Of a stretch of 64,000 nt of DNA, positions 26,905 to 57,017 are shown piece after piece. Location: the sequence record PQ416618.1; one strand, 5' to 3'. Origin of the DNA: Escherichia phage vB_VIPECOMC06. The stretch's first letter is position 1. Each line of letters starts with the position of its first letter. The position numbers and the translations under genes were made by a program. The notes under the pieces are model-generated. The model ran no database searches. It was not told the origin of the DNA and saw nothing but the letters and a program-made list of their open reading frames with translations.

Positions 26905-26976
26905 GGCCCTGTAGCTCAATGGGAGAGCTGTCAGCTCATAACTGATAGGTAGCTGGATCGAAACCAGCCAGGGCCA
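26905..26976 (+). tRNA. tRNA with CAU anticodon (Met or lysidine-modified Ile)
   Basis: Cloverleaf readable by eye: acceptor GGCCCTG/CAGGGCC, D-arm GCTC-AATGGGA-GAGC, anticodon stem GTCAG/CTGAT with loop CTCATAA, T-arm GCTGG-ATCGAAA-CCAGC, discriminator A; no encoded CCA. Confidence 0.8.
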
Positions 26977-36461: not shown

Positions 36462-36776
36462 ATGAAAACGTATAAAGAATTTATTGCAGAATCCGCCAAC
36501 CAACGCGTTGAAGGTGGTTATATTTGGATTGAACAAGTTGAGCCACCGAGCCGCACTTCTACAGGTAAATGGAAAATTACTGTTGATGGTCCTGGTGGTA
36601 AACGTAGGACTCTTAAAGAAATTAATGGGTACTATGAAGAAGCTCTTTCGGATGCAGGAACTTACATGATGCAAATCATGATTAAAAACCCTGAAAACCG
36701 TTTTGCAGCTAAAGTCTTCCGTCGCATCGGTAATAAACTTTATGACGCATACTCTAAAAACTTCCCTAAAGAATAA
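36462..36776 (+). CDS. Internal protein (IPII-like) with capsid targeting sequence
   Basis: Starts MKTYKEFIAESA; 104 aa; near denV/e as are T4 ipII/ipIII. Confidence 0.75.
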   Translation: MKTYKEFIAESANQRVEGGYIWIEQVEPPSRTSTGKWKITVDGPGGKRRTLKEINGYYEEALSDAGTYMMQIMIKNPENRFAAKVFRRIGNKLYDAYSKNFPKE

Positions 36777-36802
36777 CATGAATTAAAACAATAGGAACAA
36801 AA

Positions 36803-37381
36803 ATGAAAACATATAAAGAATTTATCGCCGAGGCCTTTGCAGGAAAAGCTCAAGGCATTAATAAGGACGAGTGGACTTATCGTGGTGGAAACGGCTTTGA
36901 CCCTAAAACTGCTCCACTTGAACGATATCTAGCCACAAAGGCTTCCGACTTTAAAGCTTTCGCTTGGGAAGGACTTCGCTGGCGTAACGATCTAAATATT
37001 GAAGTTGACGGACTTAAATTTGCTCATATTGAAGATGTTGTTGCTAGTAACTTAGACGCAGCTTTTGTTAAAGCCGACAGTGATCTTCGACGCTGGAATT
37101 TAAAACTGTTCTCTAAACAAAAAGGACCGAAGTTTGTGCCTAAAGCTGGTAAATGGGTCATTGATAATAAATTAGCTAAGGCTGTCAACTACGCTGGTCT
37201 TGAATTCGCCAAGCACAAATCATCATGGAAAGGTCTTGATGCAATGGCTTTCCGTAAAGAATTTGCTGATGTTATGGCTAAAGGCGGCTTTAAGGCAGAA
37301 ATAGATACCTCTAAAGGTACGTTTAAAGACGCTAATGTTCAGTACGCTTACGCCGTTGCTAATGCAGCCCGTGGTAATTAA
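36803..37381 (+). CDS. Internal protein (IPIII-like) with capsid targeting sequence
   Basis: Starts MKTYKEFIAEAF; 192 aa (T4 IPIII ~193 aa). Confidence 0.75.
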   Translation: MKTYKEFIAEAFAGKAQGINKDEWTYRGGNGFDPKTAPLERYLATKASDFKAFAWEGLRWRNDLNIEVDGLKFAHIEDVVASNLDAAFVKADSDLRRWNLKLFSKQKGPKFVPKAGKWVIDNKLAKAVNYAGLEFAKHKSSWKGLDAMAFRKEFADVMAKGGFKAEIDTSKGTFKDANVQYAYAVANAARGN

Positions 37382-37419
37382 GGCCTATACTTAGGCCTAT
37401 TTACATTTAAAGGACACAT

Positions 37420-37749
37420 ATGAAAACATATCAAGAGTTTATCACTGAAGTTACATTATCTGCGGAACAGAAAGCTGCTATCGAAGAAGGTAAAAATCCC
37501 AAAGTAACATATAAAGTAAATAGTAAAGGCGTTTTTGATGGCTTGGTTCAAGACCCTGAATTGAAAAAAGCTCTTTCTAAAACTAATGCGTACTTTGCTC
37601 CTAAATTTAACACAGCCGGTGTACTTATTGGATTGGATGTATTCAACTCTAAAGGTGTTCTATCTAGTGCCTTTGGTTATGCCGCTAACAAAATTACCAA
37701 AGCCGCATGGGAATCCAATACCAAACAAGCTCAAAAGCCTAGAGTATAA
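37420..37749 (+). CDS. Internal protein with capsid targeting sequence
   Basis: Starts MKTYQEFITEV; 109 aa. Confidence 0.75.
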   Translation: MKTYQEFITEVTLSAEQKAAIEEGKNPKVTYKVNSKGVFDGLVQDPELKKALSKTNAYFAPKFNTAGVLIGLDVFNSKGVLSSAFGYAANKITKAAWESNTKQAQKPRV

Positions 37750-37922
37750 TTCTTGCCTAATAAAGGGAAACGCAACCTCTCCTTATGAACGTCGAGTCCT
37801 CTGAGTGATGTACCTTTTCCAACCTGTAATAAGGTCGAGCCCAAGTGCGGTAATGGGTTTACATAGCGAGTCGAAGGACCTAACATGTGCCACGGAATGG
37901 CCCCAACCTTAAGAGAAACTAA

Positions 37923-38462
37923 ATGAGAACATTTTTAACTGGACCTTATCTATCCCTGATGAATGCTTTTACACACCATTCTGATGCTAGAGTAGAAGAA
38001 ATTTGTAAGAACGGTTATGCCCCACCATTTGAAGACGTACTCAAGCAGTACTGTACACTTCGTTTAGATGGTGGCAGACAATCTGGTAAATCAACTGCAG
38101 TAACTAATTTTGCTGTTAATTGGCTGTATGACGGTGGAACGATTATTGTTCTTTCTAATACTTCAGCTTATGCTAAAATTTCTGCTGGCAACATTGAAAA
38201 AGAATTTTCTCGTTATTCTAGCGACGATATTCGATTCCGTTTATTTACTGATTCTGTTCGTAGTTTTATTGGCAATGAAGGTTCTAAATTCCGTGGATTA
38301 ACGCTTTCTCGTATTCTGTATATAATTGATGAGCCTATTAAAGCTCCTGATATGGATAAGATTTACAATGTCCATATTAAAACAGTCCAACACTGTTGCA
38401 AAAGCAAATATTGCATCAGCGGTAATGCTCGTCCTCAATTTTTTGTGATTGGAATGCAATGA
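37923..38462 (+). CDS. P-loop NTPase-like hypothetical protein
   Basis: 179 aa; Walker A-like GGRQSGKST and Walker B-like hhhhDE (LYIIDE). Confidence 0.45.
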   Translation: MRTFLTGPYLSLMNAFTHHSDARVEEICKNGYAPPFEDVLKQYCTLRLDGGRQSGKSTAVTNFAVNWLYDGGTIIVLSNTSAYAKISAGNIEKEFSRYSSDDIRFRLFTDSVRSFIGNEGSKFRGLTLSRILYIIDEPIKAPDMDKIYNVHIKTVQHCCKSKYCISGNARPQFFVIGMQ

Positions 38463-38767
38463 TGACAACTATTGAAGTTTTTGAGTATTGTTATAACAGC
38501 CCAGTATGCAATAAAAGGGCTCTTGTAGAAAATTATGAGATTTATCATTTTAAACCTAAACGATATCGTTTGACTAAAGGTCCGTTCGCAGGGCAGCAGG
38601 TTCTTTGTACTGCTCCTAATGCACGGTTGATGACTAGTATTCCGCATTTCAAAATGGAATTTATTGATGGGCCGTTTAAGGGATTAATCACTCAAAGTTT
38701 AATGGCGTTTAATTCCGACCCATTTTTGATTAAAGAAAAATCTTGGATAAATTTATTTTCTAATTGA
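38459..38767 (+). CDS. Hypothetical protein
   Basis: 102 aa; ATGA overlap with the upstream ORF. Confidence 0.45.
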   Translation: MMTTIEVFEYCYNSPVCNKRALVENYEIYHFKPKRYRLTKGPFAGQQVLCTAPNARLMTSIPHFKMEFIDGPFKGLITQSLMAFNSDPFLIKEKSWINLFSN

Positions 38768-38773
38768 GGTTAT

Positions 38774-39136
38774 ATGAAAGCATATCAAATTCTTGAAGGC
38801 ACGCATAAAGGTACTATTTATTTTGAAGACGGTATTCAAGCACGAATTATTGTCTCTAAAACTTTTAAAGAAGACGCTATTGTAGACCCGGAAATTTTCT
38901 ACGGTTTGAATGCTCGTGAAATTGAAATTGAACATCAACCTAAAGTTAAAATTGAAGGTGGTCAACACCTGAACGTTAACGTTCTGCGTCGCGAAACTCT
39001 GGAAGATGCAGTTAAGCATCCAGAAAAATATCCACAGCTGACCATCCGTGTATCTGGTTATGCAGTTCGCTTTAACTCTCTGACTCCAGAACAGCAGCGC
39101 GACGTTATCGCTCGTACCTTTACTGAGAGTCTATAA
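38774..39136 (+). CDS. Autonomous glycyl radical cofactor (GrcA/YfiD-like spare-part protein)
   Basis: 120 aa; C-terminal half [63 protein letters not shown] is essentially the E. coli GrcA/PflB glycyl-radical domain (RVSGY motif). Confidence 0.85.
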
Positions 39137-39360
39137 TGGCTAAATTGATTATAGAAGGGTCTGAAGATGTTTTAAAATGTTTTGCCGCCTGGTTTAGTTG
39201 CTCAGGCGAGCAATCATTCATTGAAGCATTTAGAACGGGTGATATTACTGGAAAATATCCGTCAACCGATATCACTGTACGCGGATATGGTATTAATGAG
39301 CCTATCCAATTGGTCGAATATGACCTTGCCACCGATGAGGAAATTCCTTATGTCGATTGA
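39136..39360 (+). CDS. Hypothetical protein
   Basis: 74 aa ORF, ATG directly after the previous stop. Confidence 0.4.
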   Translation: MAKLIIEGSEDVLKCFAAWFSCSGEQSFIEAFRTGDITGKYPSTDITVRGYGINEPIQLVEYDLATDEEIPYVD

Positions 39361-39616
39361 AGACATCAAAGGCTACAAGCCGCATACCGATGATAAAATC
39401 AGTAAAGTGAACGCTATTAAAGATGCAGAAGTCCGTCTTGGATTGATGTTTGATGCTCTGATTGAAGAAGCATATATCTTGAAAGAAAATGAATCAGAGC
39501 AACAAACCAAAGAAGATATGGATGCAGTGCAGGCTCTTAAGTATGCTAAGCAACATCTAAAAGAAGCCAGCATGTGGGCATGTCGTGCAGTATTTCGACC
39601 TGAGGAAAAATACTAA
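39350..39616 (+). CDS. Hypothetical protein
   Basis: 88 aa from MSIEDIKGY; overlaps the upstream ORF end. Confidence 0.4.
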   Translation: MSIEDIKGYKPHTDDKISKVNAIKDAEVRLGLMFDALIEEAYILKENESEQQTKEDMDAVQALKYAKQHLKEASMWACRAVFRPEEKY

Positions 39617-39831
39617 TGGCTTCTACTATTACTGGGTTATTGGACTTTCAAGAAAAGGTCAACAAAATTTGTAGTGAATACTTAAAGTATCTTGAAGAAG
39701 ACCTTGAAGATTGTAAGGAAGAAGGCGAAGAAGACTATGCTGACCAGCGTCGTCGCCAAATCGAAGAGATGAGGCATTTCGCCGATATGGTATCTAAAGA
39801 ATCTTGGGCTTTAACTCCATTTTATCAATAA
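39616..39831 (+). CDS. Hypothetical acidic protein
   Basis: 71 aa ORF. Confidence 0.4.
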   Translation: MASTITGLLDFQEKVNKICSEYLKYLEEDLEDCKEEGEEDYADQRRRQIEEMRHFADMVSKESWALTPFYQ

Positions 39832-39835
39832 AGTA

Positions 39836-39866
39836 GTTTACTTCTCCTCTAGATGTGTTACTATAG
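39836..39866 (+). promoter_or_regulatory. Early promoter cassette upstream of regB
   Basis: gtttacttctcctctagatgtgttactatagacct then gtcaactagaggagaaatcaaaATG. Confidence 0.5.
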
Positions 39867-39892
39867 ACCTGTCAACTAGAGGAGAAATCAAA

Positions 39893-40351
39893 ATGACTAT
39901 CAATTCTGACGTTTTTATCCGCCGTAATAAACTCCGTCGAATCTTTGAAACGGAGTTCCGCAAAATAAATGCCGGTATAAAAGATGCTGCAAAGTCTCTT
40001 GGAATACCAGGCTTTCATATCAAGTATTCTCAACATCTCTTAGATCGTGCTATCCAGAGAGAAATAGATGAGAACTACGTTTTTGAATTATTTCGTAAAG
40101 TAAAAAATCATGTTAAAGAAGTTGCAGAATTTTTATCAATGCCGGCACGTCCAGATGTTGATGAAGATTTTGTCGAAGGTGTTGAATATCGCCCAGGCCG
40201 TTTAGAAATAACTGACGGAAATCTTTGGTTAGGACTTACAGTTTGTCGCGAAAATCCAGCATTCAAAATGAAGACTCTTCAATGCAGAATGGCTATTATT
40301 AACAGTAAACGACTACCAGGAAAAGCTTCTAAAGCAGTGATTAAAATCTAG
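39893..40351 (+). CDS. regB: RegB site-specific endoribonuclease
   Basis: 152 aa; MTINSDVFIRRNKLRR...KYSQHLLDRAIQREIDENYVFELF...GVEYRPGRLEITDGNLWLG...LQCRMAIINSKRLPGKASKAVIK matches T4 RegB. Confidence 0.93.
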   Translation: MTINSDVFIRRNKLRRIFETEFRKINAGIKDAAKSLGIPGFHIKYSQHLLDRAIQREIDENYVFELFRKVKNHVKEVAEFLSMPARPDVDEDFVEGVEYRPGRLEITDGNLWLGLTVCRENPAFKMKTLQCRMAIINSKRLPGKASKAVIKI

Positions 40352-40359
40352 AGGTAAAC

Positions 40360-40902
40360 ATGAGAAAAGCACTACTCGCTGGTCTATTTGCTCTTTCATT
40401 ATCAGCACATAGCTCCGAGCATACTTTTAGTAATGTCCAACTCGATAACTTGAATTATGCTTATCAGTTTGGGGAACAGTTTTCTAAGGACGGAAAATTT
40501 AAAACGCATGAAAATATGCATAAGAAAGGACTTGGATACATAATGGCCGCAATACTATGGCAGGAATCATCTGCCGGTATTAATCTTAAAGATAAGAAAG
40601 GTCACCATGCGTATGGAATGTTCCAAAATTATCTACCAACAATGAGGGCAAGAATTAACCAGCTTGGTTATAATATGACTGATGCCCAAATTAAGAAAAT
40701 GCTATCTAAGCGGTCTAATTCAGCCAGATGGGCTTATATCGAATTTTCTTATTGGTTAAATATACATAACGGGGATATAAGAAAAGCTATATCCTCATAT
40801 AATGCGGGATGGAAGACGAGTGCTGGAAGTAAATATGCTTCTGAAGTCCTAGAAAAGGCTAATTACCTTAAATCAAACAAACTACTGGAAATAAAAGAAT
40901 GA
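40360..40902 (+). CDS. Secreted protein, possible lytic-transglycosylase-like
   Basis: 180 aa; N-terminal signal peptide MRKALLAGLFALSLSAHS; WQESS...YGMFQ resembles the SLT E-S / G-(L/M)-x-Q motif. Confidence 0.4.
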   Translation: MRKALLAGLFALSLSAHSSEHTFSNVQLDNLNYAYQFGEQFSKDGKFKTHENMHKKGLGYIMAAILWQESSAGINLKDKKGHHAYGMFQNYLPTMRARINQLGYNMTDAQIKKMLSKRSNSARWAYIEFSYWLNIHNGDIRKAISSYNAGWKTSAGSKYASEVLEKANYLKSNKLLEIKE

Positions 40903-41246
40903 CCAAAATGTTGGCTTTAATAGTTGGCTTGGTTTCATTTAACGCTCTTGCTAATACTACATATACTGATGTAACGGAGTATACAAACAGAACAGCGTCT
41001 GATTATTGTGGTAAAAGTCAAGAGTGTAAAGTAGATTTTTCACAAAAATTGTTATATGCGTATAAAGACGGAGAAAAAGATGGGGCGTCTAGTAGGTTCA
41101 AGGCGTCTACCTTAATTAAAAGATACTATAAAAAATGGCAAATATTAGAATGCTCGGTGGCGGAACCTAAAGATAAGGCAGCATGCAATTCTATGGTGGA
41201 CCGTCTAGTTGACTCTTATACTAGAGGACTTGCAGCAAGTGATTAA
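40899..41246 (+). CDS. Secreted/periplasmic hypothetical protein
   Basis: 115 aa; signal peptide MTKMLALIVGLVSFNALA; four Cys. Confidence 0.45.
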   Translation: MTKMLALIVGLVSFNALANTTYTDVTEYTNRTASDYCGKSQECKVDFSQKLLYAYKDGEKDGASSRFKASTLIKRYYKKWQILECSVAEPKDKAACNSMVDRLVDSYTRGLAASD

Positions 41247-41706
41247 AAACTATATCAAGGGCGATATTGTCGCCCTGTTTTCTAAAGGTAATAATATTGC
41301 TCATGGGTGTAATTGTTTTCATACAATGGGCGCTGGTGTGGCAGGACAATTAGCAAAGGCTTATCCAAAAATTCTAGAAGCCGATAAACTTCAAACCGAA
41401 TTCGGAGACGAGTCTAAACTCGGGACTTATTCGGTTTATGAAAAATATTTTAAGACCCATAAAGCTTATTGCTTTAATCTTTATACACAGTTTGAGCCTG
41501 GACCTAATTTTGAGTACTATGCTTTAATGAATTGTATAATAGAATTAAATGAATTCGGAAAGAATAAGATAACAAAGCCTGTAATTTATATGCCAAGAAT
41601 TGGTGCAGGTATCGGTGGCGGAAACTGGGATGTCATCGAAGAGATTTTAGATACGTATTCCACTAAACTAGAAATTGTGATTGTTGATTGGGAACCATTA
41701 TTATGA
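41209..41706 (+). CDS. Macro-domain protein (Poa1/ADP-ribose-1''-phosphate phosphatase-like), non-ATG start
   Basis: KGDIVALFSKGNNIAHGCNCFHTMGAGVAGQLAKAYP resembles the Poa1 macro motif ([25 protein letters not shown]); no in-frame ATG before this motif, so the start is TTG 41209 or GTG 41239 (GAGGA SD 10 nt upstream of the GTG). Confidence 0.6.
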   Translation: MTLILEDLQQVIKNYIKGDIVALFSKGNNIAHGCNCFHTMGAGVAGQLAKAYPKILEADKLQTEFGDESKLGTYSVYEKYFKTHKAYCFNLYTQFEPGPNFEYYALMNCIIELNEFGKNKITKPVIYMPRIGAGIGGGNWDVIEEILDTYSTKLEIVIVDWEPLL

Positions 41707-41915
41707 ATATACATTATCCACATCCATATGACCCAAAGAATAAGGCAGTAATTATTCGTCAATGGGAACGCATTTGTCGTACCAAATGTCCAATTAATAG
41801 TCCACACGATGTAGATAAAGACTACATCGGAACATTCGTTGAATATACCTTTATTGATAAGAAAGGCCGTAAACAACATGTAGAAGAATACTGCTTAAAG
41901 GTGACATGGCTATGA
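41703..41915 (+). CDS. Hypothetical Cys-containing protein
   Basis: 70 aa from MNIHYPHP; ATGA overlap with the macro-domain ORF stop. Confidence 0.4.
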   Translation: MNIHYPHPYDPKNKAVIIRQWERICRTKCPINSPHDVDKDYIGTFVEYTFIDKKGRKQHVEEYCLKVTWL

Positions 41916-42097
41916 GTTTAAGCAAAGAACAAAAAGACAAACTCTTTTCTCTTATCCATGAAGTTATGGATAAAAATAGTGAATTGGAAAAAGTTTGTAA
42001 TGAATGCGGTCCTTTTAGTGCAAACGAGTACGAAGAACTTTCTAAAGAATTCGATAATAAAGAGCAAGAACTCATTGATTATATAAATTCCTTATGA
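41906..42097 (+). CDS. Hypothetical small helical protein
   Basis: 63 aa; similar in size and composition to the next ORF. Confidence 0.4.
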   Translation: MAMSLSKEQKDKLFSLIHEVMDKNSELEKVCNECGPFSANEYEELSKEFDNKEQELIDYINSL

Positions 42098-54262: not shown

Positions 54263-54736
54263 ATGTTATTATCAGGCGCAAAATATAAAGAAGAAAAACA
54301 AAAATTTTATGATGCACAGAATGGTAAGTGTCCTATTTGCCACCGTGAATTAGACCCTGATGTTCAAGGTAACCATCTTGACCACGACCACGAATTAAAC
54401 GGGCCAAAAGCAGGTAGAGTTCGTGGGTTACTCTGTAATCTGTGCAACGCAGCAGAAGGCCAAATGAAGCATAAGTTCAACCGTTCGGGTCTTAAAGGAC
54501 GTGATGTCGACTACCTCGAATGGCTTGAAGCTCTTCTTGCTTATTTGAAACAAGATTATTCTGATAATAATATCCATCCTAATTTTGTTCCAGACAAAAC
54601 TAAAGAGTTCTCAAGACTAGGTAAAGAGGAAATGATGGCCGAGATGCTTCAAAGAGGATTTGAATATAATGAATCTGATACTAAAACACAATTAATAGCT
54701 TCATTCAAAAAGCAGCTTAGAAAGAGTTTAAAATGA
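54263..54736 (+). CDS. 49: Endonuclease VII (Holliday junction resolvase / packaging endonuclease)
   Basis: 157 aa; MLLSGAKYKEEKQKFYDAQNGKCPICHREL...HLDHDHELNGPKAGRVRGLLCNLCNAAEGQMKHKFNRSGLKG matches T4 gp49. Confidence 0.95.
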   Translation: MLLSGAKYKEEKQKFYDAQNGKCPICHRELDPDVQGNHLDHDHELNGPKAGRVRGLLCNLCNAAEGQMKHKFNRSGLKGRDVDYLEWLEALLAYLKQDYSDNNIHPNFVPDKTKEFSRLGKEEMMAEMLQRGFEYNESDTKTQLIASFKKQLRKSLK

Positions 54737-56550
54737 AAATTGAAAAAGAAATTGAAGGATTAATTCATAAAACTAATAAAGATCTTTTGAACGAGAATGC
54801 TAATAAAGATTCTCGTGTTTTTCCAACTCAACGGGACCTTATGGCTGGTATTGTGTCTAAGCACATTGCCAAAAATATGGTCCCGTCTTTTATTATGAAA
54901 GCACATGAAAGCGGAATTATCCATTTCCATGATATTGATTATTCCCCTGCTCTTCCATTTACTAATTGTTGTTTAGTAGATTTAAAGGGAATGCTTGAAA
55001 ATGGGTTTAAGCTAGGTAATGCTCAAATTGAAACGCCTAAATCTATCGGTGTTGCTACTGCAATTATGGCACAAATTACCGCACAGGTTGCTTCCCATCA
55101 ATATGGCGGAACGACTTTTGCTAATGTAGATAAAGTACTTTCTCCTTATGTTAAACGCACCTATGCAAAACATATTGAGGATGCAGAAAAATGGCAAATC
55201 GCTGATGCGTTGAATTATGCCCAATCTAAAACAGAAAAAGACGTATACGATGCATTTCAAGCTTATGAGTATGAAGTAAATACTCTTTTTAGCTCAAACG
55301 GTCAAACGCCTTTTGTAACAATTACATTTGGTACTGGAACTGACTGGACTGAACGAATTATTCAGAAGGCAATTCTTAAAAACCGCATTAAAGGCCTTGG
55401 TCGTGATGGAATAACTCCTATTTTCCCTAAACTTGTTATGTTCGTTGAAGAGGGTGTCAATCTTTATAAAGACGACCCGAACTACGATATTAAGCAGCTT
55501 GCTCTAGAGTGTGCAAGCAAAAGAATGTATCCTGATATTATTTCAGTTAAGAACAATAAAGCTATCACCGGTTCATCTATTCCTGTTTCTCCAATGGGTT
55601 GTCGTAGTTTCTTGAGTGTATGGAAAGATTCGACAGGTAATGAAATTCTTGATGGGCGTAATAATCTTGGTGTTGTAACACTGAATCTTCCTCGTATTGC
55701 GTTAGATTCTTATATTGGAACACAGTTCAATGAACAAAAATTTACTGAATTGTTCAATGAGCGAATGGATCTGTGTTTTGAAGCATTGATGTGTAGAATT
55801 AGTTCCTTAAAAGGAGTTAAAGCTACTGTTGCTCCTATTCTTTACCAAGAAGGTGCATTTGGGGTCCGTCTTAAACCTGATGATGATATAATTGAGTTAT
55901 TTAAAAACGGTAGAAGTTCAGTGTCCTTAGGATACATTGGAATTCACGAATTGAATATTCTTGTCGGACGTGATATTGGACAGGAAATTTTGACTAAAAT
56001 GAATGCTCGTCTTAAGCAGTGGACTGAAAGAACCGGTTTTGCTTTTAGCTTGTATTCTACTCCTGCTGAAAACCTGTGCTATCGATTCTGTAAACTTGAT
56101 ACTGAGAAATATGGAAGGGTAAAAGATGTTACTGATAAAGGCTGGTACACTAATAGTTTCCACGTTTCGGTAGAAGAAAATATTACTCCGTTTGAAAAGA
56201 TTTCTCGCGAAGCCCCATATCATTTCATTGCGACTGGCGGACACATTTCTTATGTTGAACTTCCTGATATGAAAAATAACCTAAAAGGTCTTGAGGCTGT
56301 CTGGGATTATGCTGCGCAACATTTAGATTATTTTGGTGTTAATATGCCGGTAGATAAATGTTTTACGTGTGGAAGTACTCATGAAATGACTCCTACTGAA
56401 AACGGATTTGTTTGTTCTATTTGTGGAGAAACTGATCCTAAAAAGATGAACACAATAAGAAGAACTTGTGGTTATTTGGGAAATCCGAATGAACGCGGAT
56501 TTAATCTCGGCAAAAATAAAGAAATCATGCATAGGGTTAAACACCAATGA
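54733..56550 (+). CDS. nrdD: Anaerobic ribonucleoside-triphosphate reductase NrdD (class III, glycyl radical), uninterrupted
   Basis: 605 aa, same as spliced T4 NrdD; C-terminal Zn site and glycyl radical motif ...RTCGYLG; no intron or intron endonuclease present. Confidence 0.93.
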   Translation: MKIEKEIEGLIHKTNKDLLNENANKDSRVFPTQRDLMAGIVSKHIAKNMVPSFIMKAHESGIIHFHDIDYSPALPFTNCCLVDLKGMLENGFKLGNAQIETPKSIGVATAIMAQITAQVASHQYGGTTFANVDKVLSPYVKRTYAKHIEDAEKWQIADALNYAQSKTEKDVYDAFQAYEYEVNTLFSSNGQTPFVTITFGTGTDWTERIIQKAILKNRIKGLGRDGITPIFPKLVMFVEEGVNLYKDDPNYDIKQLALECASKRMYPDIISVKNNKAITGSSIPVSPMGCRSFLSVWKDSTGNEILDGRNNLGVVTLNLPRIALDSYIGTQFNEQKFTELFNERMDLCFEALMCRISSLKGVKATVAPILYQEGAFGVRLKPDDDIIELFKNGRSSVSLGYIGIHELNILVGRDIGQEILTKMNARLKQWTERTGFAFSLYSTPAENLCYRFCKLDTEKYGRVKDVTDKGWYTNSFHVSVEENITPFEKISREAPYHFIATGGHISYVELPDMKNNLKGLEAVWDYAAQHLDYFGVNMPVDKCFTCGSTHEMTPTENGFVCSICGETDPKKMNTIRRTCGYLGNPNERGFNLGKNKEIMHRVKHQ

Positions 56551-57017
56551 ATTATGATAGATTTTATCCTTGCGATTTTGTGAATGGCCCTGGTTGCAGG
56601 GTCGTTCTTTTCGTTACAGGTTGTTTGCATAAATGCGAAGGGTGTTATAATAAATCAACATGGAACGCTAGAAATGGTATTCCATTCACGGGTGAAACAC
56701 TAGAGCAATTAATTGAATGTTTGAATAATGATTATATAGAAGGATTAACTATAACTGGAGGAGACCCTCTCTATCCTGATAACCGAGATGATGTTCATTG
56801 CATTGCTCAAACAGTAAAAAATCTTTATCCCAATAAAAGCATTTGGTTGTGGACAGGGTACAAGTTTGAAGATATTAAACAACTAGAAATGCTTAAATAT
56901 GTTGATGTTATTATTGATGGGAAGTATGAGAAAAATCTTCCGACTAAAAAGCTGTGGCGAGGATCAGATAATCAGCGACTTTGGTCAAATACCGATGGGG
57001 TGTGGAAACATGATTAA
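56547..57017 (+). CDS. nrdG: Anaerobic RNR activating enzyme NrdG (radical SAM)
   Basis: 156 aa; CxxxCxxC cluster (GCLHKCEGC). Confidence 0.9.
   Translation: MNYDRFYPCDFVNGPGCRVVLFVTGCLHKCEGCYNKSTWNARNGIPFTGETLEQLIECLNNDYIEGLTITGGDPLYPDNRDDVHCIAQTVKNLYPNKSIWLWTGYKFEDIKQLEMLKYVDVIIDGKYEKNLPTKKLWRGSDNQRLWSNTDGVWKHD

Follow-up and report, generated by a model that had tools for sequence, protein, structure and literature searches.

Gene vs.6 of Escherichia phage vB_VIPECOMC06 (record PQ416618.1) is predicted, with a probability of about 0.85, to encode a PFL-type spare part that is activated by the host enzyme PflA and docks on host PflB cleaved by O2. The gene occupies positions 38774..39136 (+ strand) of the 64,000-nucleotide stretch analysed here, referred to as the window. 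The functional assignment is made because the product is 95% identical to the characterised T4 protein and its radical domain is 100% identical to that of GrcA. The DNA coding for this domain resembles the host gene far more closely than the rest of vs.6 does, and we give even odds to the reading that in T-even phages this tract has been overwritten repeatedly by the grcA gene of the current host via homologous recombination, leaving the N-terminal half and the last codons untouched.

The ORF starts with ATG and codes for 120 amino acids followed by a stop, exactly as described in the original prediction. Its DNA shares 97-98% nucleotide identity over the surrounding 1.1 kb with RB69-type T-even phages (genus Mosigvirus), whose records annotate the ORF as gene vs.6, 'autonomous glycyl radical cofactor GrcA'. 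These sequence comparisons identify the window as DNA of an RB69-like T-even phage and the ORF as its gene vs.6. The gene order vs.8, vs.7, vs.6, vs.5, vs.4, an extra small ORF and regB is common to the window, RB69 and T4. A GAGG ribosome-binding site read from the sequence (38766..38769, + strand) lies 4 nt 5' of the ATG and overlaps the TGA stop of vs.7, whose ORF ends at 38767, while the stop of vs.6 overlaps the start of the next gene (TAATG, 39134-39138).

A sigma-70 promoter and terminator scan of 36500-41000 found 10 promoter-like sites against 12.0 +/- 3.4 expected, none of them convincing upstream of vs.6, and the MotA-box pattern of middle promoters (TGCTT-N11-13-TANNNT) gave 13 matches against 11.5 expected, with none in 37000-42000. 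In neither scan do promoter-like sites exceed chance. A 173-nt ORF-free gap upstream of vs.8 (37750-37922) has a GC content of about 0.48 vs 0.37 for the window and contains one weak 9-of-12 sigma-70 site (37858-37886). The gap was considered as a structured RNA and rejected, since shuffled sequences fold better (z = +1.87) and Rfam finds no match in it. Rfam gave nothing credible within 37600-38050; the sole RNA gene that it detects in the window is a tRNA-Met (CAT anticodon) at 26905-26976.

Sequence comparisons place the vs.6 product among GrcA-like autonomous glycyl-radical proteins, as had been proposed, with matches in BLASTP, Pfam and the PDB. BLASTP aligns its residues 22-120 to E. coli GrcA (YfiD) with 73/100 identities (E = 3e-52). 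The expected near-identity of the C-terminal 65 residues to GrcA stands for the radical domain, the exactly identical stretch being 60 residues long rather than 65: residues 61-120 are the same as GrcA/YfiD 68-127 at 60/60 positions. The Pfam family PF01228 (Gly_radical) is hit well above its gathering score (67.3 bits vs a cutoff of 22.2, E = 2e-18). Among PDB sequences the strongest match is to YfiD (6OWR, 2.8e-42), and the C-terminus of PflB comes next (696-759, 2.2e-26; PDB 1H16 and 2PFL). The latter aligns with vs.6 residues 57-120 at 80+% identity, including the residues around Gly734. Gly95 in the motif RVSGYAV (codon at 39056..39058, + strand) is the predicted glycyl-radical site; on precise alignment it corresponds to GrcA G102 and PflB G734, so that the conservation of the RVSGY glycine, on which the original prediction hinged, is borne out.

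Vs.6 is thus a stand-alone protein of about 14 kDa in which a glycyl-radical domain follows a short N-region, the architecture of a spare part, as opposed to the 85-kDa enzyme PflB. It is closer to GrcA than to PflB, reading for instance LEDAVKH against LLDAMEN. It shares with GrcA/YfiD the radical glycine and the two-part architecture, the N-half being disordered in YfiD. It differs from it in being 7 residues shorter, in its first ~20 residues, which are unmatched by BLASTP and by TIGR04365, and in its place in a lytic phage, where the gene has a ribosome-binding site and neighbours of its own. TIGR04365 (spare_glycyl), the NCBIfam equivalog for GrcA, matches residues 20-120 with 158 bits and misses its cutoff of 170, a shortfall due to the diverged N-terminus.

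The vs.6 gene of T4, whose product we take to be Y06I and which RefSeq names as GrcA, codes for a protein of the same length that is identical at 114/120 residues (95%) and sits at the same position of the gene run; with the synteny vs.8-vs.7-vs.6-vs.5-vs.4-regB also kept, the two belong to the same orthologous group. The six substitutions comprise five in the N-half and R73H in T4. Homologs of vs.6 were found by tblastn in 1,588 phage records, T5-like phages included, and many of them are annotated GrcA. The protein matches phrog_1209 over its full length, a family listed in PHROGs as 'unknown function' despite biochemistry dating from 2001. Residues 57-119 also match positions 697-759 of phrog_21327, whose length of 760 positions suggests a family of full-length PFL-like proteins in some phages.

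The N-terminal half (codons 1-60, 38774..38953, + strand) is AT-rich, of phage lineage and conserved among T-even phages. The first 50 residues had been thought phage-specific, a view that does not hold at the profile level: in hhalign, the N-halves of 12 phage proteins and those of 67 bacterial GrcA proteins, each set taken as a profile, align with a probability of 93.4% (E = 2.4e-7, 59 columns), pairing vs.6 residues 2-60 with GrcA 3-67 at about 27% identity. Because the profiles align over essentially the full length, the N-half is, on this comparison, a diverged GrcA N-region, and the whole protein a GrcA homolog with a fast-evolving N-half.

The original prediction had not recognised the ORF as the vs.6 gene known and annotated in T4 and RB69; the biochemistry of the T4 ortholog was published in 2001. 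As that work is related in later papers, the PFL activating enzyme installs a glycyl radical on E. coli YfiD and T4 Y06I, and the radical-bearing proteins next associate in a complex with PFL cleaved by oxygen and bring back the activity of the enzyme (Wagner et al. 2001, BBRC 285:456; via PMC8683613 and PMC13450708). YfiD and Y06I are the only validated spare-part proteins, and they are validated for PFL only (PMC8683613, PMC13450708). In YfiD, residues 1-60 are disordered and aid both the binding to cleaved PFL and activation, and residues 61-127 take the fold of PFL 693-759 (PMC8683613). That the corresponding half of vs.6 is only about one-quarter identical to GrcA is a point against the functional assignment. 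Conservation of vs.6, with its match to Gly_radical, was noted in 6/6 early T4-like genomes, and a role in nucleotide metabolism was guessed (Nolan et al. 2006, PMC1524935). No phenotype of a phage vs.6 mutant in vivo turned up in our literature search.

We propose the following course of events. Vs.6 would be translated from the co-directional gene run vs.8-vs.7-vs.6-vs.5, and the host radical-SAM activase PflA would take a hydrogen from Gly95, a step that the T4 ortholog is reported to undergo in vitro. The domain at the C-terminus (about residues 54-120) would then fill the site of the 25-residue piece that is lost when O2 cleaves PflB at Gly734, restoring the conversion of pyruvate to acetyl-CoA and formate as T4 Y06I and E. 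coli YfiD are reported to do in vitro. The diverged N-half may help docking on cleaved PflB, as its homolog does in YfiD. The physiological role would be to sustain fermentative energy metabolism and PFL flux in the infected cell under oxygen fluctuations. The repair of host PflB put forward in the original prediction agrees with the activity that PMC8683613, citing Wagner et al. 2001, gives for the T4 ortholog, which is 95% identical.

Repair of the phage's own NrdD, activated by NrdG, had been put forward alongside that of PflB. NrdD, a glycyl-radical enzyme, is cut by O2 at the glycine that bears the radical. The phage does encode both proteins at 54733-57017, as NCBIfam equivalogs confirm: nrdD lies at 54733..56550 (+ strand; NF006732, 907 bits) and nrdG at 56547..57017 (+ strand; TIGR02491, 198 bits), genes given here for context only. 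Directly upstream of nrdD, a 157-aa ORF (54263-54736) carries a Cys/His motif (CPICHRELD...HLDHDH...CNLCN) and may be a counterpart of T4 gene 49 (endonuclease VII), a neighbour of nrdD in T4. In the distant T4-like Aeromonas phage 65, vs.6 (260-622 of its extract) is found directly between nrdG and nrdC; no other genomic link of vs.6 to anaerobic RNR genes was seen. A role in nucleotide metabolism was speculated (Nolan et al. 2006, PMC1524935), and Pfam is reported there to put both proteins under Gly_radical. Against a service to NrdD stand several observations. Vs.6 was described as lying alongside the RNR genes but is 15.6 kb away from nrdD and nrdG in the window, with many genes between. 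BLASTP against the NrdD of the window gives E = 2.7 and no alignment to the NrdD C-terminus, so that the two lack pairwise similarity. Their radical sites are unlike: the vs.6 domain is identical to that of GrcA, while in NrdD a Cys-rich segment precedes the terminal RRTCGYLG and the activase is NrdG. Spare parts are, moreover, validated only for PFL (PMC8683613, PMC13450708). NrdD repair is accordingly a part of the original prediction that we abandon as highly improbable.

Two other roles were weighed. The PFL type of the domain would suit a protein that also or mainly serves other PFL-type host enzymes, such as the 2-ketobutyrate formate-lyase TdcE, or that re-activates full-length inactive PflB; the published in vitro data concern cleaved PFL (PMC8683613), and we consider this extension improbable, although it is compatible with repair of cleaved PflB and not exclusive of it. 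Vs.6 might instead act as a decoy, titrating host PflA or blocking PflB and so redirecting host metabolism in place of repairing it. Its radical domain copies that of the host exactly and its N-half differs, and this combination might in principle affect how it binds or competes with host GrcA. The T4 ortholog is, however, reported to reconstitute PFL activity and not to inhibit it, according to the account in PMC8683613, and no inhibitory feature is visible in the sequence, which makes a decoy hardly credible. We retain the repair of O2-cleaved PflB as the probable function of vs.6.

The gene is a mosaic at the DNA level. Codons 1-60 have an ungapped identity of 39% to E. coli grcA and a GC content of 32%. 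Codons 61-117 (38954..39124, + strand), which encode the glycyl-radical domain, match E. coli grcA at 167/171 nt (97.7%), and the GC content of codons 61-121 is 47%. A maximum chi-square scan places the breakpoint after position 38951 (chi-square 139.8). Downstream, the tract is bounded by a phage-type 3' end, the last three codons and stop GAG AGT CTA TAA (39125..39136, + strand); the same synonymous codons GAG AGT CTA occur in RB69 and in Slopekvirus/Pseudotevenvirus, where E. coli has GAA AGC CTG. When the 64-kb window was compared by megablast with 5,426 complete E. coli genomes, a single region (38952-39144) was hit, in every genome and always on grcA, and no other host-identical DNA was found elsewhere in the window. 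The 4 differences of the tract from E. coli (39022, 39034, 39055 and 39088) are all synonymous third-position changes from GC to AT, and with them the tract of the window looks older than that of T4.

The same tract was compared across phages and hosts. In RB69 and T4 it is 1-2 nt away from E. coli alleles, none of these changes being synonymous, and nt 200-384 of E. coli grcA find matches of 95-99% in 632 phage records. When the tract was placed in a neighbour-joining tree alongside 81 bacterial grcA genes, the sequences of T4, RB69 and the window fell into one clade with those of E. coli and an Escherichia sp. (bootstrap 98%). Klebsiella T-even phages carry a Klebsiella-type tract, at up to 99% identity. 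The GC-rich tract of Klebsiella phage vB_KpnM_GF (Jiaodavirus) is 1 nt in about 163 off a bacterial-type grcA found on metagenome contig OKVR01000246.1. The GrcA of this contig is 99% identical to that of Klebsiella sp., its flanks align throughout with Klebsiella/Raoultella loci, and the phage matches it across the tract only. The Klebsiella-type donor alleles, like some of the E. coli type, come from unlabelled metagenome contigs, which in the Klebsiella case are assigned by their Klebsiella-type GrcA and their Klebsiella/Raoultella-like flanks. With the Klebsiella-type grcA of OKVR01000246.1 as query, 105 phage records match at 95% or more, those listed at that level being Klebsiella phages; E. 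coli, Shigella and Yersinia phages, among the matches listed, reach about 86-88%, the reverse of the picture with E. coli grcA as query. On the overwriting reading, to which we give even odds, the allele of the tract would be that of the host on which the phage grows, E. coli type in Tequatrovirus and Mosigvirus and Klebsiella type in Jiaodavirus.

The two parts of the gene differ in their divergence. T4 and RB69 differ at 18/180 positions of the N-half and at 3/171 of the tract (p = 0.0012). The opposite is seen between the Jiaodavirus phages Nispero and KP13MC5-5, with 0/180 differences in the N-half and 10/171 in the tract (p = 0.0007). The histories of tract and N-half are therefore decoupled, in both directions, as far as these alignments tell. 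The 3' end of the host-like stretch also varies: it reads AGC CTG (the E. coli type) in OES_C-2, AGT TTG in T4 and AGT CTA in RB69 and the window, and in GF the stretch stops about 8 nt before that of Nispero. Over at least 162 nt, the tract of Escherichia phage OES_C-2 (Tequatrovirus) shows no difference from a naturally occurring grcA allele of E. coli type, which would make it the 'freshest' conversion among the phages compared. The vs.6 of this phage (229-585 of its extract) has a 2-codon deletion in the N-half and codes for 118 aa.

Taken together, the mosaic identity, the host-matched tracts and the decoupled histories make a pattern that fits recurrent host-to-phage gene conversion, inferred here from short tracts with few informative sites. 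Vs.6 would descend from an old phage-resident grcA homolog whose radical-domain tract was replaced by the grcA of the current host via homologous recombination, probably more than once. Recurrent replacement, limited to the stretch where the phage and host copies are similar enough to pair, is the simplest reading of these sequences; the spread of a converted tract between phages is inseparable from repeated host-to-phage events in these data.

The host-like tract could alternatively stem from one old acquisition held identical by selection, or be an assembly artefact from host reads. The 5' boundary, which is the same in all lineages (grcA nt 199-202), would suit a single event, as would the strong protein constraint on the domain and the small number of informative sites. 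The same 57 residues are encoded in Cronobacter phage leB, however, by DNA with 27 synonymous differences, so that protein constraint does not explain the DNA identity of the tract. Also against this explanation are T4 and RB69, whose tracts show 0 synonymous changes relative to E. coli and between which synonymously changed codons number 11 in the N-half vs 0 in the tract (p = 0.0006). Further points against it are the Klebsiella-type tract in Klebsiella phages, the different 3' boundaries among OES_C-2, T4, RB69, GF and Nispero, and independent T4 records, which agree in their identity to E. coli grcA. Either form of this explanation is rather unlikely, and we continue with recurrent conversion by host grcA.

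A precedent for such exchange is cyanophage psbA, an auxiliary metabolic gene of lytic phages whose host-like patches are attributed to recombination with the host copy. The gene, the hosts and the phage families are different there, and the patch in vs.6 coincides with one functional domain and tracks E. coli vs Klebsiella hosts. The GrcA homologs of T5-like phages (Tequintavirus, e.g. DT57C) and of other Straboviridae resemble vs.6 in size, architecture and GrcA annotation. They differ in having about 53% protein identity to it and a C-terminal DNA that is only 70-77% identical to any sampled bacterial grcA, which indicates that they carry no recent host-derived tract. In Escherichia phage DT57C the homolog is a 122-aa protein (301-669 of its extract) encoded just after genes for tRNA-Ile and tRNA-Met. 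We found no description of a host-derived DNA tract in vs.6 in a literature search that stopped short of key older T4 papers.

The gene as such adds nothing new to what has been reported: the phage carries the usual T-even auxiliary gene for host fermentation after oxygen exposure. Two small annotation gaps are exposed, the 'unknown function' label in PHROGs and the NCBIfam equivalog that narrowly misses vs.6. If the overwriting reading is true, a strictly lytic phage with modified DNA repeatedly exchanges a patch of 170 bp with the chromosome of the host that it currently infects. Vs.6 would then be a natural, datable record of gene conversion from host to lytic phage, by which the spare part is kept matched to the PflB and PflA of the host. 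It would also provide a simple natural marker of recent host use and an experimental handle on the copying of host DNA by T-even phages.
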